NCBI GenBank assembly: GCA_035493895.1
Contig: DATJHM010000048.1
Location: 725-64,724, forward strand
Origin: Ktedonobacteraceae bacterium
GTDB lineage: Bacteria > Chloroflexota > Ktedonobacteria > Ktedonobacterales > Ktedonobacteraceae
DNA: 64,000 nucleotides
Direction of reading: 5' to 3'
Shown here: positions 365-46,526 of the stretch, one piece after another
Position numbering within the stretch: the stretch's first letter is position 1
Layout of the letters: each line of letters begins with the position of its first letter
The notes under the pieces: model-generated
What the model was told of the DNA's origin: nothing
The model's input: the letters and a program-made list of their open reading frames with translations, nothing else
Databases searched by the model: none
Program-made: the position numbers and the translations under genes

Positions 365-1975
365 TTAAGAACAGCCAAGCTGCAATAATTGTTCACTGCA
401 ACAATACGTGGAGCTTGGTGCCGCAGGCGTTTGCGCGTTGACATAGTGGTGAGAAAAGATGTCTGCATACATCTTTGCAACCATCGGACCAACGTCGAGC
501 CCTCCATCGCCACCATTCTCTTTCATCGCTACGATGGTCAGATCCGGCAGCTGATTGGGATTGCTTATGGAGTAGGGGGCCTGCGTGATCATCCACGCAT
601 TGGCGGCGGGAGTTCCATTCGTGCTGACCTGACCGGTGCCGGTCTTGCCAATAATTCCCCACGGCGAGTTGTAGAGATCGGGCACAATCGAACCTGAACC
701 ACAGCGCGCTACCCCGTACATCGCCTGACGCACTTCCGTTGCCGTCTGCTGGCTCACAGGCGAGCTGAGCTCCTGAGGCGTGAAGGACTGAACAACGCTG
801 TTGCTTTTATCGGTGATTTTCGAGATCAGTGTTGGTCGCATCAGCCGTCCATTATCGGCGGCGACGTTATTAATCAGGGCCATCTGCAATGGGGTCACGT
901 TATCGTAGCCCTGACCGAAGGCATCCTCCGCCAGCGCATTGTCGGCCAGCGACTGATTATTTTTCAGCACGGTGCTGGTGGCAACAGGCAGATCAAAAGG
1001 AATTTTCTGGCTGAGATACAGACGTTTCGCGTAATTAAGCCAGGTCTGCTGCCCGATATTGACCCCGATCTGGCCATAAATCAGGTTGTCCGAGTGGGTA
1101 TAGCCATATTCGGTCGAAACCGGGAAATGGAATGTATAGCCTTGAATATTATTGCCAATAATTTGCTGACCATCAATGTAGAGGGGACCCATGGCATGCT
1201 GCTGGTCAAATCCCTGGTTCAGCGTCGTTTTGCCACTATTCAGGCCCGCCATCAACGTTACCGTTTTAAAGACTGATCCCGGGATAAAGAGCCCCTGGGT
1301 AGGACGTTCCAGGAGCGGCTGTTCTGTATCATTTGCCTCCTGATTGTAGTAGGCAAGATTATTGACGTTGAGCTGGTTCACAAGCGTATTGGGATTGAAC
1401 GTAGGACGGCTCACCATTGCCAGAATTGCCCCTGTCTGTGGGTCCATGACGATAACCGCCCCACGATCGCTTTGAAAGGTATTGTCATTATCGATCTTTA
1501 CGTAGGTATCGAAATCCTGGTTGACTATTTTCTGAATGCGCTCATCTATGGTCAGATAGAGCGAATCTCCTACTGGTGGCTGATGAAGCGTTTGATTCAC
1601 CAGGTTTTCCAGGCTGCTCGTTCCTACCTGCCCGGTGAGGTAGTTATTATACTGCTGTTCTATGCCTGTTGAACTATATTGGGTGCCAGCATAATACCCG
1701 ATGAGTCCGGCCAGGGATGGATCGGTATAGCGGCGAACATAGCCACATCCTGTCCCCGTATCTGTAGGGACCGATTCTGCCAGCAGCACGCCATTGCGGT
1801 CATAAATCTTCCCGCGCACAGGCACGTTAGCCGGAAGGCAAGAACGAAGATTGTGAATATTACTGGTCACCTGCTGTGCCACTACGACTTGCCAGTAGAC
1901 AAGACCTGCACTGGCGGCAATGAAGAAGGCAACAAATAATATGGCCAGTTTGCGTATATTTGAGGCAATATTCAT
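365..1975 (-). CDS. penicillin-binding protein 2 / FtsI-type peptidoglycan D,D-transpeptidase
   Basis: 536 aa with an N-terminal TM helix and the transpeptidase motifs SVFK (SxxK), SDN (SxN) and KTGTG (KTG). ATG start at 1975. Confidence 0.9.
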   Translation of the reverse strand: MNIASNIRKLAILFVAFFIAASAGLVYWQVVVAQQVTSNIHNLRSCLPANVPVRGKIYDRNGVLLAESVPTDTGTGCGYVRRYTDPSLAGLIGYYAGTQYSSTGIEQQYNNYLTGQVGTSSLENLVNQTLHQPPVGDSLYLTIDERIQKIVNQDFDTYVKIDNDNTFQSDRGAVIVMDPQTGAILAMVSRPTFNPNTLVNQLNVNNLAYYNQEANDTEQPLLERPTQGLFIPGSVFKTVTLMAGLNSGKTTLNQGFDQQHAMGPLYIDGQQIIGNNIQGYTFHFPVSTEYGYTHSDNLIYGQIGVNIGQQTWLNYAKRLYLSQKIPFDLPVATSTVLKNNQSLADNALAEDAFGQGYDNVTPLQMALINNVAADNGRLMRPTLISKITDKSNSVVQSFTPQELSSPVSQQTATEVRQAMYGVARCGSGSIVPDLYNSPWGIIGKTGTGQVSTNGTPAANAWMITQAPYSISNPNQLPDLTIVAMKENGGDGGLDVGPMVAKMYADIFSHHYVNAQTPAAPSSTYCCSEQLLQLGCS

Positions 1976-2249
1976 GTGACTGCTCGATTTCTATTGTCTG
2001 ATGCCAAGAAGAACCTGGAGAGATATTTGAGCTCCTTCTCAGTAGTGTGATCTTTTCTCTTGTAACTATACCATGTCTACTATTATTATTCCAATGGATG
2101 TGACTGGCATTGATCATATCAGGAAATACTACATATAATGTAAAATTATGCAATATTTTAAATATTTTACGCTTTTGGCTCTGGAGCCGCTCAAGCATAA
2201 GAAGCTTCGCCTTACGAATATTGTGCCTGAATTTGAGGCACAATGAGCA

Positions 2250-2300
2250 TTGACAACGAATCGTATCTCAACTATATTACGTGCATCGGATTTATCCGAT
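2250..2300 (+). promoter_or_regulatory. Cassette 1 promoter plus 5' leader hairpin
   Basis: TTGACA (2250-2255), a 17-nt spacer and TATATT (2273-2278). The hairpin ATCGGA-TTTA-TCCGAT (2285-2300) starts 7 nt after the -10. The same layout occurs in 5 copies. Confidence 0.7.
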
Positions 2301-2304
2301 CAGC

Positions 2305-2377
2305 TCAGGCGTAGCTCAGATGGTAGAGTGTCTGCCTGTCACGCAGAAAGTCGCAGGTTCGAATCCTGCCGCCCTGA
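2305..2377 (+). tRNA. tRNA-like module 1 of cassette 1 (Asp-type GUC anticodon arm, non-canonical acceptor)
   Basis: D arm TAGCTCAGATGGTAGAGT, anticodon arm TCTGC-CTGTCAC-GCAGA (identical to bacterial tRNA-Asp) and T arm GCAGG-TTCGAAT-CCTGC. The acceptor strands TCAGGCG / CGCCCTGA pair only with a bulged C, and the helix extends into leader and trailer. Confidence 0.55.
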
Positions 2378-2386
2378 ACTGTCGGT

Positions 2387-2460
2387 GGGGGCGTGGTGCA
2401 GCGTAAGCATTGTACCTCCAACTTGTACAGGACGCCGGGTTGAACTCCTGGCCGCCTCCA
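2387..2460 (+). ncRNA. tRNA-like module 2 of cassette 1 (Ala-type acceptor G3:U70/A73, 9-nt anticodon loop CTCCAACTT)
   Basis: Invariant GGGGGCGTGGTGCAGCG ... CGCCTCCA. T arm GCCGGG-TTGAACT-CCTGGC (6 bp) and anticodon arm TGTAC-CTCCAACTT-GTACA. Confidence 0.55.
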
Positions 2461-2525
2461 CATCCTGTCCTATCCCCTGGTCTGCGTTGAAGCGATTAGT
2501 ATCTGAGAGATAGATAGATATAAGT

Positions 2526-4487
2526 ATGCCCGATGAGATAGTATCACCGGCTCTTTTCACGGAAGCCGCCAACATGGATACGTTCCCGGCGCGGCTCACT
2601 GCTCTGGCGCGTTTTGCTGCCCTCCAACCCCTGATCGCGGCGAACCCGGCAACGCCGCCCACAACCTTAGAGCAGCTCAGTACGTCCACCGATCCTGGCA
2701 TACGGCGCGCAGTGGCTCAGAATCCCAATGCATCCGTACAGACGTTGTGCCGTCTGGCAGGCGAATTTCCCCAGGAATTTTTGCACAATCCCATTATTCC
2801 CCTCCTGAGCATGACCCGGCCTGCCTTTGTCAAAGATCTTCCTCTCCTTTCCTGGGCAAGCCTGCTCAGATTCGAAAATCTCTCTCGCTCGTGGCTGCAA
2901 CAAATCGTGACGGATAAGAGCTATGAGCGCAATCGGTCTCCTATCTTGCGGCTGGTGCAGTTGCATGTGACCCAGGCAGGCAAAAAGCCCGAAGCATGGC
3001 GATTTGAGGCGACGCACGCGTTGCGGGCATATCGACAAATAGGGAAGTTTCAGCAAACGGTGGGATATCAACCAAAAGCTACTCCCCTTGCTTCCATTCA
3101 TCAACAGGCTGAGATAGATATATTTCTCTTGTTGGCTCTGCTGTGCCCTCAATGTGCCCCGATGTTGAAAGAGCAATGGACCAATGTTGTACACACATCG
3201 CCTGATCGTATCGTGGGCGCGCTATCTTCGTCTCTGGCGATAAGCAGTAAAACGCTGTCTTTGCTCTCGTTTGAACGCAATGTGCCCGTACTCTGCCAGG
3301 TAGCTCGTCATCCGCGCACACCCGCGAATGTTCTGGTGCACCTCGCAGGTCGTCGTCTTTCATGGGAAGTGCGGTGCGCCGTCGCCAGCAATCCGCATAC
3401 TCCATTGGAGAATGTCTATCGGCTGCTGTCTGACAGCAAGCGTGTGGTGCGCCGGGCTGCTGTCTCGCATCCCGCTCTCACGCAACAGGACTACGAAATT
3501 CTTGCTCTCGATCAGGAGACCTCAGTACGTGCTGCTCTTGCCAGAGTGCCCCGGATCGGACTCGATTTGTTGAGCCAGCTGGCCCGTGACCCCGCGCCAG
3601 CCGTACGAGCCGCCGTTGCCCGCAATGTGAAAATCAACGTGGAGACTCTTACCACATTAGCACATGATCCCGAGCCAGTAGTGCGCGCTGCGGCCGCCGC
3701 CAACTCGCGTCTTCCGGGCGAGATACAGAGCATGCTGGCTACCGATCCTGAAGTTGCTGTGCGCGCCGGAGTGAGCGGGAATGCACGTTTACCTGAGTCG
3801 TGCTTTGCCGTGCTCGTGCAAGATCCCTCGCCGCTCGTGCGTAAACAGCTCGCCGCCAATTCGCGCCTGCCCGTCCAGCATCTCGAAACACTCTGGCGAA
3901 CGGGCAATGCGGAGGTCTGGCAGGGGGTCGCACGCCATCCTCAGACCGCTCCAGAACTGCTGACACAACTGGCGCAACAGGGCGATGCACGTGTGCGCGC
4001 AGCCGTTGCCGCTCACAGGCAGACGCCGCTCGAAGTGCTCTATGCCCTGGAGCAGGAAAATGTACGCGAGATCTGGCAGGGTCTGGCTATGAACCCGAAC
4101 GCGCCGCTTGACATCCTGGAACGTGCGCTTGCTACACCGTATACCGATCTCTGGTATCGCCTCTTCAACCATCCGACGATGCTGCGCAATCAGCGTCGTC
4201 CCTATCTCACGCTGCTCGCGAGCAAGCTCCAGCAACTTATGGTTGCAAACAGCTTTCCGAACTGGCTGCGAAAAGTCGTATTCCAATATTACACCTCATT
4301 TCCCGCAACCATCATGGAGCCGTTTGCTAGCTCTCCTCACTGGGAAGAGCGCTACCTTGCAGCTCGCCATCCGCAAATAGCAGAATCGCTCCTTGATACA
4401 CTTGCTCACGATGGCATCTGTTATGTCCAGGCCGGTGCACAGGACGCATTGCAACAGCGCAAACTCTCTCATAATCTGAAGCATTGA
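2526..4487 (+). CDS. leucine-rich-repeat-variant (LRV) / HEAT-like repeat protein
   Basis: 653 aa with many roughly 24-aa repeats of the form LAxDPxPxVRxAVAxNxxxP (for example LARDPAPAVRAAVARNV, LAHDPEPVVRAAAAANSRLP, LATDPEVAVRAGVSGNARLP). ATG at 2526. The TGA stop lies inside the next cassette's -35. Confidence 0.8.
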   Translation: MPDEIVSPALFTEAANMDTFPARLTALARFAALQPLIAANPATPPTTLEQLSTSTDPGIRRAVAQNPNASVQTLCRLAGEFPQEFLHNPIIPLLSMTRPAFVKDLPLLSWASLLRFENLSRSWLQQIVTDKSYERNRSPILRLVQLHVTQAGKKPEAWRFEATHALRAYRQIGKFQQTVGYQPKATPLASIHQQAEIDIFLLLALLCPQCAPMLKEQWTNVVHTSPDRIVGALSSSLAISSKTLSLLSFERNVPVLCQVARHPRTPANVLVHLAGRRLSWEVRCAVASNPHTPLENVYRLLSDSKRVVRRAAVSHPALTQQDYEILALDQETSVRAALARVPRIGLDLLSQLARDPAPAVRAAVARNVKINVETLTTLAHDPEPVVRAAAAANSRLPGEIQSMLATDPEVAVRAGVSGNARLPESCFAVLVQDPSPLVRKQLAANSRLPVQHLETLWRTGNAEVWQGVARHPQTAPELLTQLAQQGDARVRAAVAAHRQTPLEVLYALEQENVREIWQGLAMNPNAPLDILERALATPYTDLWYRLFNHPTMLRNQRRPYLTLLASKLQQLMVANSFPNWLRKVVFQYYTSFPATIMEPFASSPHWEERYLAARHPQIAESLLDTLAHDGICYVQAGAQDALQQRKLSHNLKH

Positions 4488-4534
4488 CAGCGAATGTGCT
4501 CTCGATTATAGTAATGCCATCGACTTTGTTCGAT
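4484..4534 (+). promoter_or_regulatory. Cassette 2 promoter plus 5' leader hairpin
   Basis: TTGACA (4484-4489, overlapping the stop codon at 4485-4487), a 17-nt spacer, TATAGT (4507-4512) and the hairpin ATCGA-CTTTGT-TCGAT (4519-4534). Confidence 0.65.
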
Positions 4535-4538
4535 CGGT

Positions 4539-4611
4539 GCGGGTGTAGCTCAGATGGTAGAGCATTGGTTGGCTAAACCGAAGATTGCAGGTTCGAGTCC
4601 TGCCCACTCTG
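4539..4611 (+). ncRNA. tRNA-like module 1 of cassette 2 (GCU in anticodon position, short variable loop, no U33)
   Basis: D arm TAGCTCAGATGGTAGAGC, anticodon arm TTGGT-TGGCTAA-ACCGA and T arm GCAGG-TTCGAGT-CCTGC. The acceptor region pairs only as a bulged extended helix (GGTGCGGGTG with CACTC-T-GCGC). Confidence 0.5.
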
Positions 4612-4620
4612 CGCTGTTGT

Positions 4621-4692
4621 GGGGGCGTGGTGCAGCGGCAGCATCGTGCACGCAAAGCACGGGAGGCCGGGTTCGATCCCCGGTCGCCTCCA
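4621..4692 (+). tRNA. tRNA-like module 2 of cassette 2 (Ala-type acceptor, GCA in anticodon position, 7-nt loop ACGCAAA)
   Basis: This is the only copy with a 5-bp anticodon stem (CGTGC/GCACG) and a 7-nt loop. Position 33 is C, not U. Acceptor GGGGGCG/CGCCTCC plus A73, and T arm GCCGGG-TTCGATC-CCCGGT. Confidence 0.55.
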
Positions 4693-4727
4693 CATTCTTC
4701 CTATTCTCCCCCTTTTTTTGCCCCGTT

Positions 4728-4757
4728 TTGGGATAGAGACGTTCGTTTTGGTATGAT
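4728..4757 (+). promoter_or_regulatory. Possible secondary promoter upstream of the kinase gene
   Basis: TTGGGA (4728-4733), an 18-nt spacer and TGG-TATGAT (extended -10, 4749-4757). Confidence 0.3.
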
Positions 4758-4933
4758 AGAGATGGGTCTCAGAGGGACTTTTTCGTCTCTCGCCCGTATA
4801 TCATAAAGATGACCTATCGTTGGCTCGATAGTGTGCACATTCAACCCCGCAACAATACGTATGCTCTTTCCGTTTGTTCGCTGTTGCTGAAAATGGAAAG
4901 AGGAATGGCAAAAAATCTCTGGAGAGGCTGCAT

Positions 4934-6952
4934 ATGGTTGATTACATAGGACGACAGCTTGGCAATTATCGCCTTACCCGTCTTTTAGGCAAAGGCAGTT
5001 TTGCGCAGGTCTATCTTGGGGAGCATATCTATCTTGGTACTCCGGCGGCGATGAAGGTGCTCAGCACGCAGATGGCGGACGATCTGGATGTGTTTCGCAC
5101 AGAAGCTCGTACTATCGCTCGTCTGATTCATCCCAATATTGTGCGCGTGCTGGAATTTGGCGTGGAAGGCACCATTCCGTTTCTGGTGCTGGACTATGCG
5201 CCCAATGGAACGCTTCGTCAGTACTACCCCAAAGGCGTGCCTCTCCCCTTGCCAACGGTGGTCTCCTATGTGAAACAGATCGCTGAGGCATTAGCGTATG
5301 CCCACGGTGAAAAGTTGATTCACCGGGATGTGAAGCCGGAAAATATCCTCCTGGGAAGAAATAACGAGTTGCTTCTGAGCGACTTTGGGATCGCTCTGAT
5401 GGCGCAGACGATGCACGATCAGAATATGCAGAATGTGGCGGGTACGCTGGCCTATATGGCCCCTGAACAAATCCAGGGCAATCCGCGTCAGGCCAGCGAT
5501 CAGTATTCATTGGGCATCATTGTCTATGAGTGGCTGACTGGCGAACGTCCCTTCAATGGCTCGTTCAACGAGATAATCTCGCAGCAGCTCTCTGTTCTCC
5601 CTCGTCCCTTGCGCGCAAAGGTTCCGACGATTGCCCCGGCCGTTGAACAGGTGGTGTTGATGGCCCTGGAGAAGAATCCTGATCGACGCTTTAACAACAT
5701 CCGCGCATTTGCCTTTGCCCTGGAGCTGGCGAGCCAGCTCAATGCGTCTGCCTCTGACGTCGCCGGTAAGCCTGCCGGAGTTGGCGAGATCTCCCCCTCC
5801 TTCAGCAAGCCCCAGGGCGATGAAAGAGCCGCGATTGCGCCGACGATTCTCCCATCTCCAGCGCCTGTATCGCCAGCAAACAATGCCGCGCCTCCGACGA
5901 TCCTTCCACCCCCTGAACTCCTATCGCCAGCGAAAAGTGAAGGCCCTGTTGTGCGCCCTGTCGCACCCCCGCCATCAGTACCCACGCCGCAAACAAAACC
6001 CGCGGGAACGCTCGTCTCCAGTTATCAGGGACATCCGAACGAAGTATGTTCTTTATCGTGGTTCTCCGGTGGCGTGCGCATTGTGTCGGTAAGCAATGAT
6101 AAAAGTGTGCATGTCTGGGATGCTATGACGGGCAAGCAGTTCCAGATCTACCAGGATATCGCTGATGCCGTGGGTGTCATCGCAGGCTCACCTGATGGCT
6201 CACGTATTGCCACTGCCGGATCTGATGCCCAGGTGCGGATCTGGGATTTTGCCACGAATCGTCTGGTAACCACATATCGTGGTCATGTCGGAAGCACCAT
6301 TAACGCAATCGCCTGGTCGCCAACGCAGCAGCAGCTCGCTTCCGCCGCTGCTGACGGCACCGTACACGTCTGGGATGCGACGACGGGGCAGACGCTCACC
6401 ATCTATCGTGGTCATACCGGCAGCGTCAATATGCTGGCGTGGTCGCCCGATGATCCTTCGTCGGCGCGTATCGTTTCCGGTGGCGACGATGCGTCAGTGC
6501 AGACCTGGAATGCCTCCACTGGCAGAAGTATTGCGCTCCACCGCAGCCAGGGGGCGAAGGTCATGAGTGTCGCATGGTCGCCGGAGGTATATCCCATGTC
6601 TCTCCAGACGAGCTACTCGGCAAGCATGCCCACGAAGGTTCCCAATAGTGCCCGGGTCGCGTGCGGGAGAGCAGACGGAACGGTACAGATGTGGGATACC
6701 ACCACAGATCGCGAAGTATTAAGCTACCGCTACAATGCCCCTCTCTCCGTCGTCGCATGGTCGCCGGATGGGAGGCGTTTCGCCTATGCCAGCGAAAACA
6801 AGACAGTAGAGGTGTGGGACACCATGACGAATCTCAAACTGGTAACCTTCTCCCATGCCGCTCCAACCCGCGTCATGGCCTGGTCCCCCGACGGAAAATA
6901 CATTGCCTCTGGCGGTGGCGATGCAACGATACAAGTCTGGGTTGCCCCATAA
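4934..6952 (+). CDS. Ser/Thr protein kinase with C-terminal WD40 beta-propeller
   Basis: Kinase motifs GKGSFAQV, HRDVKPENILL, DFGIA and APE. A Pro-rich linker is followed by at least 7 WD repeats (VHVWDA, VRIWDF, VQTWNA, VQMWDT, VEVWDT, IQVWV). The ATG at 4934 is preceded by GGAGAGG. The ORF track's TTG at 4874 is less likely. Confidence 0.9.
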   Translation: MVDYIGRQLGNYRLTRLLGKGSFAQVYLGEHIYLGTPAAMKVLSTQMADDLDVFRTEARTIARLIHPNIVRVLEFGVEGTIPFLVLDYAPNGTLRQYYPKGVPLPLPTVVSYVKQIAEALAYAHGEKLIHRDVKPENILLGRNNELLLSDFGIALMAQTMHDQNMQNVAGTLAYMAPEQIQGNPRQASDQYSLGIIVYEWLTGERPFNGSFNEIISQQLSVLPRPLRAKVPTIAPAVEQVVLMALEKNPDRRFNNIRAFAFALELASQLNASASDVAGKPAGVGEISPSFSKPQGDERAAIAPTILPSPAPVSPANNAAPPTILPPPELLSPAKSEGPVVRPVAPPPSVPTPQTKPAGTLVSSYQGHPNEVCSLSWFSGGVRIVSVSNDKSVHVWDAMTGKQFQIYQDIADAVGVIAGSPDGSRIATAGSDAQVRIWDFATNRLVTTYRGHVGSTINAIAWSPTQQQLASAAADGTVHVWDATTGQTLTIYRGHTGSVNMLAWSPDDPSSARIVSGGDDASVQTWNASTGRSIALHRSQGAKVMSVAWSPEVYPMSLQTSYSASMPTKVPNSARVACGRADGTVQMWDTTTDREVLSYRYNAPLSVVAWSPDGRRFAYASENKTVEVWDTMTNLKLVTFSHAAPTRVMAWSPDGKYIASGGGDATIQVWVAP

Positions 6953-6962
6953 GCGCTCATCA

Positions 6963-6996
6963 GTAGGGACGCCATGGAGGCACGGAATGGCGTCCG
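6963..6996. repeat. REP-like element, family a (GTAG head plus hairpin GGACGCCAT...ATGGCGTCC)
   Basis: The 36-mer CAGTAGGGACGCCATGGAGGCACGGAATGGCGTCCG is repeated identically at 27910-27945 and 28686-28721. This copy sits 10 nt after the kinase stop and may double as a terminator. Confidence 0.75.
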
Positions 6997-7079
6997 GGTA
7001 GCCAACGAATTCTCAGGCACCGAAGACGAGAGCAGCAACAAAAAACCAGCCGAATCGCAGCCCAGAAGCCCAATGAGCA

Positions 7080-7130
7080 TTGACAATAAATCTAAACTCA
7101 ACTATATTGCATACATCGGATTCGTTCGAT
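7080..7130 (+). promoter_or_regulatory. Cassette 3 promoter plus 5' leader hairpin
   Basis: TTGACA (7080-7085), a 17-nt spacer, TATATT (7103-7108) and the hairpin ATCGGA-TTCG-TTCGAT (7115-7130). Confidence 0.7.
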
Positions 7131-7134
7131 CGGC

Positions 7135-7208
7135 GCAGGTGTAGCGTAGTGGCCTAACGCAGCTGTATATCCCGCAGGAGATCTCAGGTTCGAATCCTGT
7201 CGCCTGTG
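7135..7208 (+). ncRNA. tRNA-like module 1 of cassette 3 (AUC in anticodon position)
   Basis: Acceptor GCAGGTG/CGCCTGT (two G-U pairs), extended to 11 bp with leader and trailer. D arm GCGT-AGTGGCCTA-ACGC, anticodon loop ATATCCC and T arm (T)CAGG-TTCGAAT-CCTG(T). Confidence 0.5.
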
Positions 7209-7217
7209 TCGCATAGT

Positions 7218-7291
7218 GGGGGCGTGGTGCAGCGTCAACACAGTACATCCAATTGGTACATGACGCCGGGTTCAACTCCCGGTCGCCTCCA
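7218..7291 (+). ncRNA. tRNA-like module 2 of cassette 3 (Ala-type acceptor, 9-nt loop ATCCAATTG)
   Basis: Invariant GGGGGCGTGGTGCAGCG ... CGCCTCCA. Anticodon stem GTAC/GTAC and T arm GCCGGG-TTCAACT-CCCGGT. Confidence 0.55.
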
Positions 7292-7344
7292 CAGTTCATC
7301 CATTGCAAAACTCTCCTCATCGCAGCCCAGAAGCACAACAAGCA

Positions 7345-7395
7345 TTGACAATAAATCTAAACTCAACTATATTGCATACATCGGATTCGTCCGAT
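7345..7395 (+). promoter_or_regulatory. Cassette 4 promoter plus 5' leader hairpin
   Basis: TTGACA (7345-7350), a 17-nt spacer, TATATT (7368-7373) and the hairpin ATCGGA-TTCG-TCCGAT (7380-7395). Confidence 0.7.
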
Positions 7396-7399
7396 CAGC

Positions 7400-7472
7400 A
7401 CAGGAGTAGCGTAGATGGTAGCGCGTCTGCTTTGCACGCAGAAGGTCGCAGGTTCGAGTCCTGTCTCTTCGT
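7400..7472 (+). tRNA. tRNA-like module 1 of cassette 4 (Ala-type UGC anticodon arm, non-canonical acceptor)
   Basis: The anticodon arm TCTGC-TTTGCAC-GCAGA is identical to bacterial tRNA-Ala(UGC). D arm GCGT-AGATGGTA-GCGC and T arm GCAGG-TTCGAGT-CCTGT. The acceptor ACAGGAG / CTCTT-C-GT pairs only with a bulged C and continues 4 more bp. Confidence 0.55.
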
Positions 7473-7481
7473 GCTGTCAGT

Positions 7482-7554
7482 GGGGGCGTGGTGCAGCGTG
7501 AGCATCGTGCAGCCAAAAGCACAGGACATCAGGTTCAACTCCTGGTCGCCTCCA
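7482..7554 (+). ncRNA. tRNA-like module 2 of cassette 4 (Ala-type acceptor, 8-nt loop AGCCAAAA)
   Basis: Invariant GGGGGCGTGGTGCAGCG ... CGCCTCCA. Anticodon stem GTGC/GCAC and T arm ATCAGG-TTCAACT-CCTGGT. Confidence 0.55.
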
Positions 7555-7607
7555 CACTTCATCCACCGCAAAACTCCCCTCGTGCCACCTCAGAAGCGCA
7601 ATGAGCA

Positions 7608-7658
7608 TTGACAACGCTTTTCCCCTCAACTATATTACATGCATCGACTTTGTTCGAT
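7608..7658 (+). promoter_or_regulatory. Cassette 5 promoter plus 5' leader hairpin
   Basis: TTGACA (7608-7613), a 17-nt spacer, TATATT (7631-7636) and the hairpin ATCGA-CTTTGT-TCGAT (7643-7658). Confidence 0.7.
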
Positions 7659-7662
7659 CGGC

Positions 7663-7736
7663 GTGGGAGTAGCTCGGGTGCTAGAGCGCCTCCTTGCCAA
7701 GGAGAGAGGTCGCAGGTTCGAGCCCTGCACACTCAA
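7663..7736 (+). tRNA. tRNA-like module 1 of cassette 5 (Gly-type GCC anticodon arm, degenerate acceptor)
   Basis: The anticodon loop TTGCCAA is identical to bacterial tRNA-Gly(GCC). D arm GCTC-GGGTGCTA-GAGC and T arm GCAGG-TTCGAGC-CCTGC. The 5' GTGGGAG pairs with the trailer only through an internal loop. Confidence 0.5.
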
Positions 7737-7745
7737 CGTCGTCGT

Positions 7746-7818
7746 GGGGGCGTGGTGCAGCGAAAGCATAGTACGCTCATTAGTACAGGACATCAGGTTC
7801 AACTCCTGGTCGCCTCCA
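7746..7818 (+). ncRNA. tRNA-like module 2 of cassette 5 (Ala-type acceptor, 8-nt loop GCTCATTA)
   Basis: Invariant GGGGGCGTGGTGCAGCG ... CGCCTCCA. Anticodon stem GTAC/GTAC and T arm ATCAGG-TTCAACT-CCTGGT. Confidence 0.55.
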
Positions 7819-7916
7819 CATTCACCCGAATATCTTATGGCCATTTATCCCCGCATTCTTGCCAGACCGATCTTGCAGAGATTTCAGCCAATAAAAAAAG
7901 AATTGAGTGGACTATC

Positions 7917-8951
7917 ATGACGCCAGAAGCTCTCTCAAGTTTTTTGCATAAGCTCGTCGAACATCGTCTGATGTTCAGTACTATGATCTGGGGCGCGCCG
8001 GGCATCGGCAAATCGAGCATTGTCGCGCAGACTGCGGCTGCCTACGAGATGGAGATGATCGATCTTCGCCTCTCACAACTGGCCCCGACGGATCTGCGCG
8101 GCTTGCCCGTGGCTGACAATGGTGTCTCGCGCTGGTATCCGCCCGAATTTTTGCCGCGTGAAGGCAAGGGCATTCTCTTTCTCGACGAATTGAATCTCGC
8201 TCCTCCCGCGATGCAGGGGATGGCGCAACAGTTGATTCTGGATCGCCGCGTCGGGAACTATACGGTTCCCCGGGATTGGTTTGTCTGGGCCGCAGGCAAT
8301 CGCAAAGAAGATCGTGCCGCCGTGTTCGACATGCCCGCGCCACTCGCCAACCGCTTCATCCATCTCACGGTCGAGGCGCACTTTGACAGCTTCAAATCCT
8401 ACGCCCTCGGACAGCACATTCACGAGCACATCCTGGCGTTTCTCTCTTTCCGTCCCGCATTGCTACATAAGCTCGATCCACAGCAGCCTGCCTGGCCTTC
8501 GCCTCGCTCGTGGATGATTGCCAATCGTCTATACAAAGTGGGCCTGGATATCTCGCATGTGGTCGGCCAGGGCGTTGCCGCAGAGTTTGCCGCTTTTCTC
8601 AAGCTCTATCAACAGTTGCCCAATGTCACTGAGATTTTGCAGGGAAACGGCGACAAGATTGGCTTCCCCGATGAGCCATCGCAGCGTTACGCCCTGACCG
8701 TTGCTCTGACTATGCGCGCCACTTCTCTGCAAGAAAGCTATCTGGCATTTCAATGGATGGCTGCGCATGCCGGACACGAATGGATACAGCTCTTTGCTAC
8801 CGATCTCTTCCGTCAGGCTCGCGCACGCAACGAACTGGGACGTCTGGCGACACTGGTGCAGCGCGATAAACGCTTACAGCAAATGTTCATTGAATACATG
8901 AAGTTGCTGGAGGAGCCCGACGCGTTGGAGGAAGCCGATGAGCAAGAATGA
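7917..8951 (+). CDS. MoxR-like AAA+ ATPase (AAA_5 type)
   Basis: Walker A GAPGIGKS, Walker B ILFLDELN, and AAGNRKEDRAAVFDMPAPLANRF. The likely start is the ATG at 7917 (MTPEALSS...). The ORF-track start at 7608 reads through cassette 5 and is rejected. Confidence 0.85.
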   Translation: MTPEALSSFLHKLVEHRLMFSTMIWGAPGIGKSSIVAQTAAAYEMEMIDLRLSQLAPTDLRGLPVADNGVSRWYPPEFLPREGKGILFLDELNLAPPAMQGMAQQLILDRRVGNYTVPRDWFVWAAGNRKEDRAAVFDMPAPLANRFIHLTVEAHFDSFKSYALGQHIHEHILAFLSFRPALLHKLDPQQPAWPSPRSWMIANRLYKVGLDISHVVGQGVAAEFAAFLKLYQQLPNVTEILQGNGDKIGFPDEPSQRYALTVALTMRATSLQESYLAFQWMAAHAGHEWIQLFATDLFRQARARNELGRLATLVQRDKRLQQMFIEYMKLLEEPDALEEADEQE

Positions 8952-10068
8952 TGCTTTTCAGCGCCAGATTTCCGCCGCGATCATTCAGTTGCGCCTGCAT
9001 TCGCCGTTCTTTGCAACGCTCGCGCTGTTCGCCAGGATTATTCCCACGCAAAACTATCCCACGGCGGCAACCGATGGACGCGATGTCTTTATCAATCCAG
9101 ATTTCTGGCGCGACCTGACGACCGCTGAGCGCCTGGGCTTGCTCGCTCACGAAGTACTGCACGCCGCGCTCCTCCACGTGCCGCGCCTGGGCCGACGCCA
9201 TCCCTTAACCTGGAATATTGCAGCCGATATTGTGGTCAATGGCATCATTCTTGCTCAGGATGGTTTTGCGCTGCCGAAGGGGCATCTGCGCTATGCGCAG
9301 CTTGAACAACTGAGTGTGGAGGAAATTTATCATCAGATCCAGGCAAATGCCGACGTACGCAAGCTTTTGCTTCCTCTGTTTGCCGATCTGCTGTTGCCCA
9401 CAGAAGGACTCTCTCCCGACCAGTATGCCGAACTTGAGCAGCACTGGAGGCAGGCCTTACGCCAGGCCGAAACGCTGGTCGAAGTGCTGGGACATGGCAC
9501 GCTGCCAGCAGGCTTGCGGCGCGAAATGACCCATCTCAGCCCCTCTCAACTGGATTGGCGAGCCTATCTCTGGCGCTTCCTGGTGCAAACTCCGACCGAT
9601 TTTGAGGGCTTCGATCGTCGCTTTGTGGGTCAGGGACTCTATCTGGACGCGCTCGCGGGGGAGAAACTGCGCGTCTTTGTGGCGGTCGATACCAGCGGCT
9701 CTATTGGCAGTAAAGAGATTGCGCAGTTTCTCGGCGAGGTGCAGGCCATCCTGGGTGCCTATCCACATCTGGAGGCCATCCTCTATTATGCAGATGCTGC
9801 CTGCTATGGTCCCTATGAGCTGACCCCTAACTCAGAGCTTCCCCCTCCGGTGGGTGGCGGCGGCACCGATTTTCGTCCGTTCTTTGCGGCCGTTGAGACG
9901 ACCCTCGATGCTTCGTCTCATGGCATCTGCATCTATCTGACCGATGGCTATGGTACCTTTCCCAGCGTACCACCCTCATTGCCCGTGCTCTGGGTCCTCT
10001 CTCCCGGCGGGATAAGCATCGAATATGTGCCATTTGGGGAAGCGGTACGCCTGATTCCCGACGTGTGA
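8938..10068 (+). CDS. vWA-like domain protein with N-terminal HExxH metallopeptidase-like domain (DUF2201-type partner of MoxR ATPases)
   Basis: HEVLH zinc-binding motif and a MIDAS-like VAVDTSGSI. The start overlaps the ATPase stop by 14 nt, which suggests an operon. Confidence 0.8.
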   Translation: MSKNDAFQRQISAAIIQLRLHSPFFATLALFARIIPTQNYPTAATDGRDVFINPDFWRDLTTAERLGLLAHEVLHAALLHVPRLGRRHPLTWNIAADIVVNGIILAQDGFALPKGHLRYAQLEQLSVEEIYHQIQANADVRKLLLPLFADLLLPTEGLSPDQYAELEQHWRQALRQAETLVEVLGHGTLPAGLRREMTHLSPSQLDWRAYLWRFLVQTPTDFEGFDRRFVGQGLYLDALAGEKLRVFVAVDTSGSIGSKEIAQFLGEVQAILGAYPHLEAILYYADAACYGPYELTPNSELPPPVGGGGTDFRPFFAAVETTLDASSHGICIYLTDGYGTFPSVPPSLPVLWVLSPGGISIEYVPFGEAVRLIPDV

Positions 10069-10101
10069 CCTGCGCGCCTCGCTTTCCCGATCTGTTTTGT
10101 A

Positions 10102-10431
10102 TTAGCGGTTCCGTTCGCTACGTACGAAGACTGTCGTCTCGATAGAGAGAAAGAGCACGAACAGAATCCCGATGACCAGCAGATTGATGAACGGATTGAG
10201 CAGGACAACCTGAGCGTATTCTGATCTGCCCATATAGAAGATACTACGGACCAGATCGACGGTGTAGCGCATCGGGACAAGCTTCGAGAGGATGTCCAGA
10301 TACCAGGGGAGATTGCGGACCGGCAGAAAGACGTCTGCCAGAAAGAATCGCGGGATGACAGTGAAGTACCCCACGGCTGAAGTTATCAAAATCCATCTAT
10401 TGAAAATCTTGATGTGCTCTTGCTCCTGCAA
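10102..10431 (-). pseudogene. ABC-2 type transporter permease, C-terminal fragment only
   Basis: The 109-aa ORF matches only the last TM segments of ABC-2 permeases (LPVRNLPWYLDILSKLVPMRYTVDLVRSIF). The upstream frame is broken by a stop, and the expected N-terminal part is occupied by repeat family X. Confidence 0.5.
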
Positions 10432-10576
10432 GTGTAGCCGGAGAAAGGATGAGAACCGGCATCATCCCCGCAGATGAGTTACCAGGAACCACATCGGATA
10501 GTAAAAAACGAAAAGATAGACAATGACGTTTGACTAAACAATCCAAATCCCTCTATGGATTGAAAGCATGTACGTC

Positions 10577-10969
10577 CACAAATTCATGCCGAAGAACCAA
10601 TTTCGCCCGAACCCTTCAGAAATTTCATTACCTGTCGAATATCTATAACAGAAGAGGAAAAATCCCTCCCACCCCGTTCTCACAACAACGATGTCGCCTG
10701 AAGAGAGACAGTGCAGCATCCAATAATGGGGGAAAGTGTAGGACTGGCGTAGGGGGCGTGTAGGCGTGAGATTCCCATCACATCGGCATTTGTGTAGGTT
10801 ATGTAGCTTTTTAGAAAAAAATCTCGTAGCGTAAAAAAATCTCGTAGCGCGTCACCAAAAGGATCCCAATTCCCTATCATCTCACCTCTCACCATCTCCT
10901 GTAGCTCTGGTGTCGAGGCGTGTAGGGTCAAGATCGCGATCACATCCACCCTGGTGTAGGATGTGTAGC
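10577..10969 (+). repeat. Repeat family X, copy A (roughly 400-bp non-coding element with multiple TGTAG motifs)
   Basis: Shares about 80-85% identity by eye with 28240-28542 (same orientation) and 53627-54067 (inverted). It contains a 17-nt tandem repeat, AAAAAAATCTCGTAGCG x2, at 10815-10849. Confidence 0.75.
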
Positions 10970-11052
10970 CCTGTAACAACTTGTCATAACGAATCCACCC
11001 ATTGGCCCGGAGAACCCATACCGGCATCGACACGCGTCGCGCCCCCGCAGAG

Positions 11053-11098
11053 GTAGGGATCGGGCTTTATGCCGATCCGCGAGCCCCCCGGCCATCGC
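11053..11098. repeat. REP-like element, family b (GTAGGGATCGGGCTTTATGCCGATCC) plus a CCCCCGGCCATC box
   Basis: A GTAG head is followed by an imperfect palindrome. The same architecture recurs at 16600-17120. Confidence 0.65.
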
Positions 11099-11205
11099 GC
11101 GCGACAAATCTGTTGAAAACGAAACAAAAATCTATATTTCACTATATTTTCTAAAACTAACTGCTAATACGTTTGATACAGAAATAGGTACATAGTATTA
11201 GTTTC

Positions 11206-11234
11206 TGTACAAAAATGAATAATATCCCTATAAT
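11206..11234 (+). promoter_or_regulatory. Possible promoter of the 1714-aa gene, inside an AT-rich leader
   Basis: TGTACA (11206-11211), a 17-nt spacer and TATAAT (11229-11234). GGAGG at 11271-11275 lies 9 nt before the ATG. Confidence 0.35.
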
Positions 11235-11284
11235 AAGTGGATATTGCCCCTGTCTATCAGTAACCCATCAGGAGGACGTCCTTT

Positions 11285-14200
11285 ATGTTATCGTGCTGGA
11301 ACTGCCACGCGGTATTACCAGAGGGAGCAAAATTTTGTGGACGCTGTGGAAATAAACAAGACACGGCAGCGTCTGTTCTACCATCTTCTCTTCTTACCGT
11401 TCCCCACTCTACTCAACTTGTAGCAACGGACCTTGTGCATCATGATCAACCTGTCGCAACGGACCTGCATCATGATCACTCTGCCGCTCCCACTTTTACC
11501 ATCTACTCGGCCGTTTTGCCGATCAAAACCTGGCTTGCAGAACATCGCGCGACCATTGCCGCAAAACTTTTGACGGTCCTTGTGTATGTCAATACCAGGC
11601 GCAATGAAAACAGAGAGCTTTTTGAAACCAATAGCGGAAGAGAAACTCCTCCGCTCGAAGATCGTTCCTGGGACAAAGTTGCCTTTATTGCCGGGCTGTA
11701 TGCTCGCTTTATGTGGCGCTATGAGTTGAACGCCGAACAGAAACGCAATCTCTGGGATGCCTTGTGCTGGTCCGTGCTCTATGAACGAGCTTTGCGCCCG
11801 AAGATGGCTGATGCCCGCTTTGCCGAACTGGTTGGCTTTTTTAATGGCTGCGCCGGGGATAGCGAATTCTTCGCCTATATGCTCCTGAGCATGCCGCTCT
11901 TACTTGAATATGTTGATACTTCCAATATCCACAAACTCCTGACCGCCAGTGAACGTCTGGGCAACTCATCGGATGTCGTGCATCTGCGCGCATTACTTCA
12001 CCAACGCCTCGTTATGCCTGCCGATGTGGATCTGGAGTCAACTCAATTGACGGTGCTGGCCGATCAGCCCGGCCCGAGACGTGAGTGGGCGCGTATCATT
12101 CTGGCTATTGAACATCTCTGGCAGTTTTTAGACAAAAAACGCGAGAGCAGTAATCAGCGCGCGCTGACCTTTGCCCGCGAAAATCCCATGGACTCGACCA
12201 CTCCTTCGCAACTGGCAACGCTGGGCGGGGTGATTTGTCGCAATGTCGTCTTTCGCTATGCTCACAATAGTACGTTACCTGGCAGCATGCTGACTGCTGA
12301 ACAATTGGCGGACGCCATCGCGCTGGCGGAATACTCGATACGCTATAGTTCAGGTGATTATATTGGTAAGGCCGAATATTATTATCTGCTCTTGAGCAGC
12401 TTACGCGATCTGCGGACACATGTACTCTCGGCCGATGTGCTCGTGAGCGCGCTGAAACGCCAGTTCGCACCCGAGGGATTGGCCCGAATATCGGAATTCT
12501 CCTGGTCCGATCTCCTCGGCATCGTGACGCGCTACCTGAGCGAGTGTCGTCTGGCGGAAACCATTGATGTGGTGGAGGTGGAGTCCTGGATACGCGCTCT
12601 GGCTGATCTTGCTCCTCAGTTTCAACTGGAGGCGCGCAAGGTGTTTGTGAGTGAGGTGCGCCAGCATGGCGTGCGCGACAGTATGGCTTTGCGTGCTTTG
12701 CAGGGCGAGTCATTGGAAATGGTCAGTGAAACACATGACAGGGGGCCACTGGCGTTTCTCGGACAGGAGCGCTACAAAGAGCTGCTGACCTGTATTCGTA
12801 CCTCTCGTCTGGATCGTCTGGGCGAAATTCTGCGTGAGGCGCGCCCGAAACTTTTCGCCGAACTGAGCCGTCTATTGACCGATCAGAAGTTTGCGGAGAT
12901 TCTCCCGCCCCGACGCTCATTGCGCATACGTGGTCGCAATGCCAATGCTCTCGATCGCTTTCAGGAGGCAAAAACGCTTATTCAGAGCGAGAATGTCGCC
13001 GAGCAACAGGAGGGACTTGCTCTCTTCGAGCGAGCTCAGGCTGATACTGCCCGCGAATATCAGCCCGTTGCACGCGAATGGCGTCTGTTCGCGATTGCCT
13101 GCGTCCGGGCGCGCTATCAGGCGGTCCCGCTGTGGGAAGAGGATCGCTGCAAGGGCGTTGCGTCCTGGGAGGAGATCTGGAATCTGGCCGTCTTCTATGT
13201 TCATGTTGGCAAGATCGATCAGGCGTTGGAATTGCTGGTGCCCGGCGTTGAGCGGCAGCGAGCCCCTTTCTCGCATCTGCGTTTTGCCCTCTATTGCAGC
13301 GTGCAGATTCTCGGACAGGGGTCACATTCGCAACACGAGAGCATCGAAGCCGCCGAAACGTTTCTTATGGAGCATCTGAAACAGTATCCCTTGCCGGAAT
13401 GCTATCTGGCATGGTCTTTATTGGTCAGTGAACGCGAGAGTGTTGATCGAGCGCAAAGTACAAACAATATGATGAAGCAACTGACGATCCTGACCAAATT
13501 TAACGAGTTGCTTGACCATCCCATCCTTATCCTGAAGCCAGAGGAGTCGGTCAGCGATTCTGCCCTGGAGACATTTGAAAAAGAACTCCGTCGCCTCGAT
13601 CTGGACGATGTCTGGCGTTTCTGGATTCACGACTATGCCCAACGCAACCGCTATAAATTCAGTGCCTGGCAGGCGCTGAGCGATGCGTACGAGCGCGCGG
13701 GCGAAAGTACCGGAGCTGAAAAGTCCCTGAAACATGTTGCAGATACGCAGCTTGATATGTATCTGAAGCAGCGCGAGAAAAGTAGTGCTGTTGTCTCTAA
13801 TCTGCTGCATCTGCGCAATCATCTATGTAAGTTGTTCGATTTTTATCAACGTCAGGGCCGTTTATTGGACGATGATGTCTTTGCCCGCTTTAAGCACTAT
13901 CGCACGACTGTCCCCGAACTATGGCATGAACGGGAGAGTGCGAATACGAAGTTGATCAAGCAGACACGTCCTCTGCTGGAGAAACTGGGGCGAACAGGCA
14001 GCACAAACGAGTCTTCTGCAACTCAAGCCCCACAGAAAGCCTGGTATGCGCTCGCTTCGGAGCTTACGACTGTCCAGGAAATCGCCACTCTGAAGAGCTT
14101 GCAGGCGCGCATACATACCCATGTCCATCTTCTGACGGATGCGCAAAAGCAGGGTCAGGACGATGTTGCGGGCGTCCTATCGCTGCTGGATGATCTCTGC

Positions 14201-46417: not shown

Positions 46418-46464
46418 AGCTCACTTGGGAGAGAGAGTTCGCAGGCACAGTTCACCGTGCCACT

Positions 46465-46526
46465 ACTGGGTTCAAAGTGCCACTTAGGCGCGGCTACTGG
46501 ATTCAAAGTGCCACTTAGGCGCGGCT
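46465..46526 (+). repeat. Tandem 31-nt direct repeat x2
   Basis: ACTGG(G/A)TTCAAAGTGCCACTTAGGCGCGGCT occurs twice, head to tail. Confidence 0.8.

Follow-up and report, generated by a model that had tools for sequence, protein, structure and literature searches.

The stretch of DNA analysed here (the window, 64,000 nucleotides (nt) from a Ktedonobacteraceae bacterium, positions 725 to 64,724 of contig DATJHM010000048.1 in assembly GCA_035493895.1) carries, directly upstream of a gene for a MoxR-type AAA+ ATPase, a tandem array of promoter-bearing units for predicted tRNA-like RNAs, which we call cassettes. Three of these, cassettes 3, 4 and 5, lie in direct repeat across 7080-7819 and are followed by the MoxR start codon at 7917. 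Tandem Repeats Finder detected direct repeats with a period of 264 nt (2.9 copies, 7054-7824, 78% matches, score 812), and the -35 hexamers of the three cassettes were found at 7080, 7345 and 7608, at intervals of 265 and 263 nt, as a model's earlier reading of the letters without database searches (the sequence-only reading) had proposed. The MoxR gene (7917-8951, + strand; 344 amino acids (aa), Walker A motif GAPGIGKS, Pfam AAA_5, N-terminus aligned with those of orthologues) is overlapped at its end by a gene (8938-10068, +; Pfam DUF2201_N and DUF2201) whose product fuses an intact HExxH zincin-like metallopeptidase domain (HEVLH) to a vWA domain with a DxSxS MIDAS motif (DTSGS). Further promoters of the cassette type at 2250 and 4484 mark cassettes 1 (2250-2461, +) and 2 (4484-4693, +) and bring the total in the window to five. 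Cassette 1 stands 66 nt upstream of the gene for an LRV/HEAT-like alpha-solenoid protein (2526-4487, +; 653 aa, isoelectric point (pI) 9.5, Pfam LRV and LRV_2), and cassette 2 stands upstream of a gene whose product is assigned by Pfam as a Ser/Thr kinase-WD40 protein (4874-6952, +).

The promoters of cassettes 3, 4 and 5 each read TTGACA-17-TATATT and each match 11 of the 12 sigma-70 consensus positions, in line with the earlier claim that every cassette has a full promoter of its own. When 1800-11500 was scanned with the consensus, 15 promoter-like sites were observed, compared with 6.8 +/- 2.8 in shuffled sequences, and the five cassette promoters were the best of them. The 17-mer GGGGGCGTGGTGCAGCG occurs exactly five times in the window, where 0.21 occurrences would be expected even with three mismatches allowed, and an alignment of the five cassettes gave a mean column identity of 77%. 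The linkers after cassettes 3 and 4, already described as conserved in the sequence-only reading, are 71% identical to one another, and each of them shares no more than 26-31% with the tail after cassette 5. Across 7060-7590 the similarity of cassettes 3 and 4 forms a mosaic, with identities of 100% in the promoter, 96% in the hairpin P1, 84% in the upstream region, 69% in the first cloverleaf (module A) and 80% in the second (module B), and module A of cassette 4 is nearer to that of cassette 1 (78%). This mosaic pattern suggested gene conversion of the promoters or shuffling of modules between cassettes.

No terminator-like site was predicted on the + strand between 4780 and 8148, and therefore none lies between the last module, ending at 7819, and the MoxR start codon at 7917, as the sequence-only reading had noted; nor was a promoter-like site predicted in the intervening spacer or leader (7820-7916, +), in which only the A/G-rich ribosome-binding region is conserved between loci. 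The computed open reading frame (ORF) of 447 aa (7608-8951) takes as its start the TTG of the cassette 5 -35 hexamer TTGACA and is thus an artefact, which had also been foreseen; orthologues of MoxR begin at an ATG matching 7917 (MTPEAL/MTPDAL).

All cassettes share one order of parts, in which the sigma-70 promoter is followed by P1, by a helix, P2, with module A, abutting P1, and then by a linker of 2-5 nt and module B, so that each would encode an RNA of about 185-190 nt with two tRNA-shaped domains. P1 begins 6-7 nt after the -10 box and is therefore expected at the extreme 5' end of the transcript. P2 comprises about 11 base pairs (bp), the 'acceptor' strands being extended by four leader-trailer pairs, and closes the complete cloverleaf of module A. 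Module B is a cloverleaf with a 9-bp closing helix, made of a 7-bp acceptor and the pairs -1:73 and -2:74, a D loop AGCGUNA that lacks the GG dinucleotide, and a T arm of canonical form whose stem has 6 bp and whose loop is UUCAACU. Its anticodon arm is variable, with a loop of 7-9 nt in the window, and is deleted in some copies at other loci (L062, L123 and L128); its 3' end does not encode CCA and reads ...CCUCC-A-CA.

In cassette 3 the promoter (7080-7108) is followed 7 nt after the -10 box by P1 (7115-7130, ATCGGA-TTCG-TTCGAT), which was seen in the sequence, in the minimum free energy fold and by covariation (helix 1 of alignment A3, below). Module A (7131-7211) is closed by an 11-bp P2, CGGCGCAGGTG / CGCCTGTGTCG, has the anticodon-like loop AUAUCCC and was called by ARAGORN (7134-7210) and by the Rfam tRNA model (41.6 bits); module B (7216-7292) has the 9-bp closing helix, a G3.U70 pair, the D loop without GG, a 9-nt anticodon-like loop and the 6-bp T stem, and scored 89.7 bits with R1, a covariance model that we built from module B. 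Cassette 4 repeats the promoter without a change (7345-7373) and continues with P1 (7380-7395, ATCGGA-TTCG-TCCGAT), module A (7396-7476; loop UUUGCAC, 'Ala-UGC', 11-bp P2 with one bulged C, ARAGORN 7400-7472, Rfam tRNA 53.4 bits) and module B (7480-7555; 8-nt loop AGCCAAAA, R1 93.8 bits, Rfam tRNA 27.3 bits and so below threshold). Cassette 5 comprises the promoter with the spurious ORF start (7608-7636), P1 (7643-7658, ATCGA-CTTTGT-TCGAT), module A (7659-7741; loop UUGCCAA, 'Gly-GCC', closing helix of 7 bp, a bulged A and 5 bp, ARAGORN 7664-7737, Rfam 33.2 bits) and module B (7744-7819; 8-nt loop GCUCAUUA, Rfam tRNA 30.9 bits, R1 93.8 bits). All of these elements are on the + strand. The two single cassettes are built alike, cassette 1 with an 'Asp-GUC' module A and a 9-nt loop in module B, and cassette 2 with the loop UGGCUAA in module A and ACGCAAA, 'Cys-GCA', in module B.

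Module A of each window cassette was thus called a tRNA by both ARAGORN and Rfam, at 33-59 bits (33.2-58.7; RF00005 threshold 29), with the anticodons GUC, GCU, 'AUC', UGC and GCC, and the D-loop GG and a UUCGAAU-type T loop are present. Module B is borderline on the same model (27-31 bits, with scores of 30.9, 27.3 and lower against the threshold of 29). The loop form Y32-U33-NNN-R37 was found in 13 of 18 copies of module A; module B mostly has loops of 6-9 nt, and several copies are armless. Complementarity of the anticodon-like loops to each other or to the ribosome-binding region, looked for by eye, extended over no more than 3-4 nt and was rejected.

Selection on the predicted folds was assessed in two alignments, A2 (MAFFT, module B, 21 sequences) and A3 (the front half of the cassette, 18 sequences). 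In A2, 98.6% of cells pair and compensatory changes are seen in 10 of 23 pairs, a result reached by none of 500 shuffles, and pairing fell to 35-52% in slid controls; RNAalifold returned a structure identical to the A2 model. In A3, 91% of cells pair, with compensatory changes in 24 of 31 pairs and again none of 500 shuffles reaching this, and RNAalifold recovered P1, the outer P2 pairs and all three arms. Covariation in the front half takes in P1 and the outer leader-trailer pairs of P2 (columns 24-27 with 104-107), for example 25:106 with AU 7, GC 7 and GU 4, and P2 covaries at 9 of its 11 pairs. Among 34 copies of module B aligned by fitting to the covariance model, 98.4% of cells pair, with UA 28, CG 4 and UG 1 at -1:73, GC 25, AU 4, CG 1, UA 1 and GU 1 at -2:74, and AU 18, GC 11 and GU 5 at the sixth T-stem pair; counts based on MAFFT agreed with these. 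Pairing has therefore been selected beyond 1:72, by four extra base pairs in module A and two in module B. The helices of module A have bulges at sites that differ from copy to copy and show no consistent discriminator.

As covarying leader-trailer helices close the acceptor ends, and as a conserved hairpin is predicted at the 5' end, the alignments point to one composite RNA per cassette and not to tRNAs that are excised. Pairs selected beyond 1:72, P2 bulges that vary in place and a 5' hairpin stacked on P2 are, to judge from these comparisons, not properties of tRNA genes. Comparative sequence analysis thus showed the cassettes to be selected, structured RNA genes, each with a strong predicted promoter, that belong to the gene cluster.

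The pair 3:70 of module B is G.U in 32 of the 34 copies, A-U in two and G-C in none, although the neighbouring pairs covary freely, and position 73, taken as a sequence feature, is A in 28 of the 34. G3.U70 together with A73 is the identity set for alanine used by alanyl-tRNA synthetase. The near-invariance of the pair together with A73 therefore suggests that this synthetase, or another reader of G3.U70, may recognise module B. For aminoacylation a free CCA end would be required.

A possible source of module B was found at locus L069, where an ordinary Chloroflexia pair of tRNA-Asp(GUC) genes (1165-1369, - strand) scored 40-45 bits with R1. Since these genes carry the same 5' 17-mer, their first 17-18 nt being as in module B, module B may have descended from tRNA-Asp, which would have entailed a move of the G.U pair from 4:69 to 3:70 and the replacement of the discriminator G by A. 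The two tRNA-Asp genes have no consistent closing extension of the kind seen in the cassettes. A viral or plasmid origin was considered and rejected, as a pattern scan of IMG/VR gave only ordinary phage tRNAs and blastn against phage and plasmid records gave generic tRNA-level matches over about 30% of the cassette. Searched permissively (E <= 1), Rfam gave tRNA and weak tRNA-Sec matches only, and no T-box, Y RNA, transfer-messenger RNA (tmRNA) or riboswitch; Rfam 15 holds no family for these RNAs, and no description was found in the literature searched, on tRNA-like RNAs with Ktedonobacteria, MoxR, MoxR-vWA or anti-phage systems and on DUF2201, the supplement of Mukai et al. 2017 falling outside that scope.

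With nhmmer and R1, about 33 cassettes were found in 13 distinct loci, carried by Ktedonobacteraceae, Dictyobacter, Ktedonospora, the strain brp13 and soil metagenomes. Among the matches listed for a scan of genomes with the 17-mer, those in Dictyobacter aurantiacus (L008) and Ktedonospora formicarum (L062) were true cassettes and the others were mostly due to chance in GC-rich genomes; a stricter pattern scan of metagenomes gave six loci, and more came from contigs of LRV homologues, including Ktedonobacteria bacterium brp13 (L130, AP024096.1). The LRV protein of the window is itself 100% identical to one from a Ktedonobacteraceae metagenome-assembled genome. Although these DNA scans were blind to context, all of the true cassettes lay within a locus of the triad of LRV, MoxR and zincin-vWA genes (two of two among the matches listed for the genome scan and six of six for the metagenome scan), and the triad is present in every locus that bears a cassette. 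All five of the loci with an LRV homologue of at least 31% identity whose DNA was examined carry cassettes. R1 finds 51 modules, all in cassette loci except the ordinary tRNA-Asp genes of L069, and neither R1 nor nhmmer found further cassettes elsewhere in the 64-kb window or in about 200 kb of related loci.

Cassettes lie on the gene strand in all 13 loci, directly upstream of LRV, of MoxR or of both, and in the window also before the kinase-WD40 gene. The distance from the end of the second module to the next start codon (LRV or MoxR) was 56-114 nt in the 14 cases measured, the spacer itself being unconserved between loci save for the ribosome-binding region. In nearly all loci the cassettes have the promoter TTGACA-17-TATAGT/TATATT at one constant distance, and a near-consensus promoter is so placed wherever the upstream DNA was available. 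Copy number per site varies from one to four: a tandem of four precedes the LRV-MoxR-vWA operon of L123, while there are two and two in L125 and one, one and three in the window. At the site of cassette 2, L140, whose LRV protein is 90% identical to that of the window, has two cassettes and retains both loops of the orthologous cassette. The loops differ between paralogues and between genera, where the anticodon differs at orthologous positions, yet are conserved in L140, and hypervariability over the short term was therefore rejected. Module A in the more distant loci L123, L128, L131 and L132 is a paralogue of module B, which, like the loss of the anticodon arm from some copies of module B, is in keeping with RNAs other than tRNAs. 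In Ktedonospora formicarum the spacer between cassette and MoxR gene is stretched to roughly 800 nt and contains a long imperfect inverted repeat (L062, about 3330-3500 on the minus strand), ccatgccttcaggcctgtttcttacccacatc ... gatgtgggtaaaagacaggcctgaaggcagggg, which resembles a miniature inverted-repeat transposable element (MITE).

The reading that we favour, and to which we give an even chance, is that the cassettes are autonomous genes for a double tRNA-like non-coding RNA which also supply the operon with its promoter and 5' leader, RNA and mRNA being transcribed together and then processed apart. As no terminator- or promoter-like site intervenes in the window and the short spacing is fixed across loci, the cassette promoters would also transcribe the LRV and MoxR-vWA genes and so drive their mRNAs. 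The primary transcript would have the form (hairpin-A-B)n-mRNA. Its cleavage by the machinery for tRNA ends (of RNase Z/P type, or RNase E), either at module B or downstream of it, would separate the mRNA from a stable RNA of about 190 nt with two tRNA-like domains, and three stacked promoters would produce the RNA in excess over protein. More speculatively, the freed RNA might act with the co-expressed proteins as a scaffold, as an inhibitor or brake or as a sensor, and module B might be recognised, and possibly charged, by alanyl-tRNA synthetase. The sequence-only reading, which saw an array of promoters feeding structured RNAs into an operon leader and offered either tRNA-mRNA co-transcription or a regulatory leader, was upheld in part by these results. 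Strand, spacing and the lack of an intervening promoter- or terminator-like site agree with the feeding of a leader, but the array is not peculiar to the MoxR leader, having five copies in the window and a family spread across the loci. The cassettes are moreover not merely leaders, because at least one, in L127, faces a convergent gene. The favoured reading corresponds to the first of the two alternatives offered, tRNA-mRNA co-transcription, with the product corrected to a composite tRNA mimic: the modules, with their covarying leader-trailer closure and conserved 5' hairpin, are not ordinary tRNAs.

Several observations weigh against the favoured reading. The L127 cassette just mentioned (11944-12104) faces a convergent TIR-domain gene and has no downstream gene to drive, and T-rich runs stand right after module B in L062 (CCAUUUUUCUU), L130 (CCACUUUUUU) and L126/L127 (CCAUCUUUUG), which could end a part of the transcripts. 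Folding energies of single sequences were only modestly better than those of shuffles (z = -1.2 and -2.1). Co-transcription of the cassettes with the operon, the processing and the RNA ends are all inferred, and are plausible. The distant triads L137, L138 (Calothrix) and L139, whose LRV proteins are 25-28% identical to that of the window, gave no tRNA-like element with ARAGORN, Rfam or R1; the proteins are therefore not universally dependent on such an RNA, and the cassettes are, judging from these loci, a lineage-specific addition to a wider protein module. The LRV solenoid is also generic and has no specific RNA-binding relative by model-based comparison: its AlphaFold model (predicted local distance difference test (pLDDT) 93.8) is a HEAT-like solenoid, with which Foldseek retrieved only generic HEAT/ARM solenoids (PP2A A subunit, karyopherins) at a template-modelling (TM) score of about 0.25.

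That the cassettes act purely in cis, as a lineage-specific promoter and structured 5' leader for the control of expression, with a released RNA that has no function of its own, we consider unlikely. Such a leader might provide entry sites for RNase P/Z that set the 5' ends or stability of the mRNA, or might sense the capacity for tRNA processing or charging. It would account for cassettes standing before every transcription unit, including the non-homologous LRV, MoxR and kinase-WD40 genes, for the short and fixed distance to the start codon and for triads that work elsewhere without the RNA. A leader, however, needs neither a promoter in each tandem copy nor a conserved 5'-terminal hairpin, and it would not be expected to occur in arrays with as many as four complete units or to point at a convergent gene, as a cassette of L127 does. 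The spacer beside the start codon is unconserved, and G3.U70 and the nucleotides of tertiary contacts are conserved far beyond the needs of a cleavage signal.

Within the favoured reading, a role of the RNA in trans with the co-encoded proteins is possible by analogy, the points offered for it being the basic LRV protein (pI 9.5), the conflict-type genes nearby (TIR, kinase-WD40 and a STAND-NYN gene) and the analogy with Ro60-YrlA. Taken further, and with what we regard as a rather low probability, filamentous Ktedonobacteria might have an unrecognised ribonucleoprotein system, for conflict or as a chaperone, whose RNA subunit the cassettes encode. A double tRNA mimic, with the alanine identity pair on one of its domains, would be bound by the basic LRV solenoid and handled by MoxR/zincin-vWA, and would either serve as a decoy for, or a sensor of, attack on the pool of tRNAs or act as a brake like an antitoxin, along the lines of Ro60-Y RNA or of type III toxin-antitoxin systems; dosage and diversity would then come from the tandem arrays and from exchange of the anticodon-like arms.

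The conflict-type neighbours are of several kinds. The TIR-domain gene of L127 (12413-13387, -) lies inside the cluster, between LRV and MoxR, a place that the Ser/Thr kinase-WD40 gene takes in the window, and the contig of P0003 has a TIR gene about 4.5 kb downstream of the triad. In PADLOC the window kinase matches the kinase models PD-T4-6 and mad6 at E of about 1e-67; the resemblance may be one common to kinases in general. At 11285-16429 (+) of the window, 1.2 kb downstream of the MoxR-vWA operon, lies a gene whose product of 1714 aa has a zinc ribbon at its N-terminus, an ATPase region of STAND/AAA_22 type (about residues 1177-1335) and an NYN ribonuclease domain at its C-terminus (1536-1667); the product has the look of a conflict-system protein, has no PADLOC or NCBIfam match and was not found beside the triad elsewhere. 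Protein-only RNase P is one of the NYN nucleases. For LRV, MoxR and vWA themselves, PADLOC and NCBIfam gave no match, and a sequence search of PDB led from MoxR to Midasin only and from LRV to 1LRV only.

These neighbours also bear on a further explanation, an array like those of type III toxin-antitoxin systems, or a Y RNA, which would bind the zincin-vWA/MoxR/LRV machine and hold it inactive or guide it, loss or cleavage of the RNA in infection freeing the activity and transcription into the genes being attenuated read-through. We find this explanation doubtful, and somewhat more so than the two set out before it. A tandem array of structured RNAs directly upstream of protein genes, with a variable copy number and strong promoters giving an excess of RNA, would suit it, as would TIR genes in L127 and on the contig of P0003 and the kinase-WD40 and STAND-NYN genes of the window, the T-rich tracts after module B in several loci, the basic LRV protein and the precedent of Ro60/Rsr (a HEAT ring with vWA) and the tRNA-like YrlA. 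Against it, no toxin was identified, PADLOC having no match for LRV, MoxR or vWA, the triad occurs without the RNA in other phyla, Rfam gave tRNA matches only, with no ToxI or Y RNA similarity, and the solenoid fold is generic.

Genuine tRNA genes, whether for extra isoacceptors or for alanine-charged suppressors of missense or frameshift mutations in the manner of allo-tRNAs, which would be excised by RNase P/Z, provided with CCA, aminoacylated and used by the ribosome or by a tRNA-dependent transferase, are in our view a distinctly improbable explanation. The Rfam scores, canonical D and T loops and frequent Y32-U33-NNN-R37 loops of module A speak for it, as do the G3.U70 of module B with its prevalent A73 and the irregular tRNA polycistrons and G3:U70 tRNAs with odd anticodons known in soil bacteria (PMC5389517). 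The covarying pairs that close the acceptor ends of both modules are contrary to it, together with the shifting bulges and inconsistent discriminator of module A, and module B, with its 6-9-nt loops or missing arm, a 13-bp acceptor/T branch and no G18G19, is no better suited. Orthologous positions carry different anticodons across genera, and a conserved 5' hairpin on each unit would be superfluous for a tRNA gene. Functionless remains, either decaying tRNA pseudogenes or a selfish tRNA-derived repeat like a MITE or a short interspersed nuclear element (SINE), are hardly credible, for although the array is a tandem duplication whose copy number differs between close relatives and cassettes 3 and 4 are mosaic, compensatory changes keep all helices across genera and already disfavour decay, nearly all copies have a near-consensus promoter, the cassettes keep strictly to one strand and placement with respect to one set of genes in 13 loci, and no copies were found in the rest of the 64-kb window or in about 200 kb of related loci.

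Other features were noted around the triads. A gene for a protein of some 580-630 aa immediately precedes the first cassette in L125 (1910-3724), L127 (6672-8507), L130 (7827-9707) and L132 (7938-9677); the protein has an SDR (adh_short) domain, with a weak DUF6602 match in L127 and L132, and the L125 member and a possible one in L062 (6170-7954) were placed in the set by ORF size and position. This SDR-domain protein could be a fourth component of the system and is not found at that place in the window. In L130 (AP024096.1, 18-40 kb from the start of the record) the brp13 triad lies near the end of an 8.9-Mb record, surrounded by transposases, a reverse transcriptase and two genes for telomere resolvases of ResT/TelK type, which hints at a linear replicon with hairpin telomeres. 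In L138 (Calothrix sp. NIES-4071), LRV-MoxR-vWA is followed by four more LRV-repeat paralogues with no tRNA-like RNA, and a signal recognition particle (SRP) RNA and a gene for a LigT-type 2',5' RNA ligase lie nearby. Two short tandem repeats of the window, at 46463-46526 (31 nt x 2.1, 96%) and 10815-10849 (18 nt x 1.9, 100%), are unrelated to the cassettes.

Taken together, the sequence comparisons give good support to a new family of tRNA-derived RNA, unusual in architecture and with a strict, previously unreported link to the MoxR/vWA/LRV cluster. To our knowledge, few RNAs with the shape of a tRNA occur outside translation, and a distinct mechanism has come to light with every known one (Y RNA/YrlA, the tmRNA domain, viral tRNA-like structures and mascRNA). 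If RNA and proteins cooperate, MoxR-vWA systems would gain their first reported RNA component, and multicellular bacteria a new case of tRNA mimicry in what is likely a conflict system; if the cassettes are leaders only, stacked promoters feeding tRNA-like processing signals would still be an unusual operon design. For annotation pipelines, the miscalling of module A as a tRNA gene and the calling of ORFs through cassettes are both misleading. As cassettes are carried by the cultured Dictyobacter aurantiacus S27 and Ktedonospora formicarum SOSP1-1, the question is directly testable.

When compared with known systems, the cassettes, as read from their sequences, miss a defining feature of each, be it a free acceptor end, a tag ORF, a TROVE domain or Y RNA match, an 8/4 or 9/3 branch or a toxin RNase. 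In E. coli, thrU-tyrU-glyT-thrT-tufB is a unit of tRNA-mRNA co-transcription. The cassettes resemble it in that tRNA-shaped RNAs stand upstream of a protein operon on the same strand, with no terminator or separate promoter predicted between, an arrangement kept in 13 loci, and in that tRNA-end nucleases would part the RNAs from the mRNA. They differ in having a promoter and a 5' hairpin for every unit, closed acceptor ends, bulged helices and odd loops, and in being tied to one gene cluster and not to the translation apparatus. In ToxI a single promoter serves all of the 36-nt repeats, a terminator comes after them, and the toxin RNase cuts the repeats apart. The likeness to ToxI/ToxN lies in an array of direct-repeat RNAs immediately upstream of protein genes in a defence-type setting, whereas the cassettes are tRNA-like units of 264 nt with a promoter each, no predicted terminator and no evident RNase toxin downstream.

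Module B shares with the tRNA-like domain of tmRNA the G3.U70 pair and A73, a reduced D loop without GG, a canonical T arm and a dispensable anticodon arm. Unlike tmRNA, the cassette RNA has no mRNA-like domain or tag ORF, the 5' strand of its acceptor is internal and its end is paired (-1:73, -2:74); no tmRNA was found in the window and related loci by ARAGORN, or by Rfam. YrlA is encoded with Rsr/Ro60 (a TROVE HEAT ring with vWA) in an rsr-yrlBA-rtcBA operon, and in it the Ro-binding stem replaces the anticodon arm. Here too a non-coding RNA with a tRNA-like domain is encoded alongside alpha-solenoid and vWA-domain proteins, but the cassette RNA has no Rfam YrlA or Y RNA match and consists of two complete, helix-closed cloverleaves, Pfam found no TROVE domain in the neighbouring proteins, and the vWA domain, unlike that of Ro60, is fused to a zincin peptidase and paired with MoxR. 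A ROT/TROVE protein with a tRNA-like partner has also been mentioned (PMC7824862).

In soil Acidobacteria, polycistrons of irregular tRNAs (tRNA0/1/2) and allo-tRNAs have been described near toxin-antitoxin loci (Mukai et al. 2017, PMC5389517), some of the irregular tRNAs having G3:U70 with unrelated anticodons and some being inactive in translation; the authors suggested possible regulatory non-coding RNAs (PMC5389517). The cassettes are likewise tandem, non-canonical tRNA-like genes of soil bacteria with a conflict-type association. They differ in their phylum, in the promoter and hairpin of every unit and in the association with MoxR/vWA/LRV, and where allo-tRNAs have an 8/4 or 9/3 acceptor/T branch and a long variable arm, the cassettes have 7(+2)/6 and 7(+4)/5 and a variable region of 5 nt. 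Ternary MoxR-vWA conflict systems have third components of VMAP, iSTAND, FtsH or beta-propeller types, and the survey of these systems names no RNA component, tRNA occurring in its list of references alone (Kaur et al. 2020, PMC7159879). The vWA protein of the window, with an N-terminal zincin and no beta-propeller, is unlike subsystem 4 as described there (PMC7159879), and the bpX5 match is weak (E = 0.0014, below cutoff). A MoxR/zincin-vWA pair has been described as a chaperone couple in jumbo phages (PMC7824862), and in the window MoxR and vWA are both present, with the LRV solenoid as the conserved third gene of the cluster.

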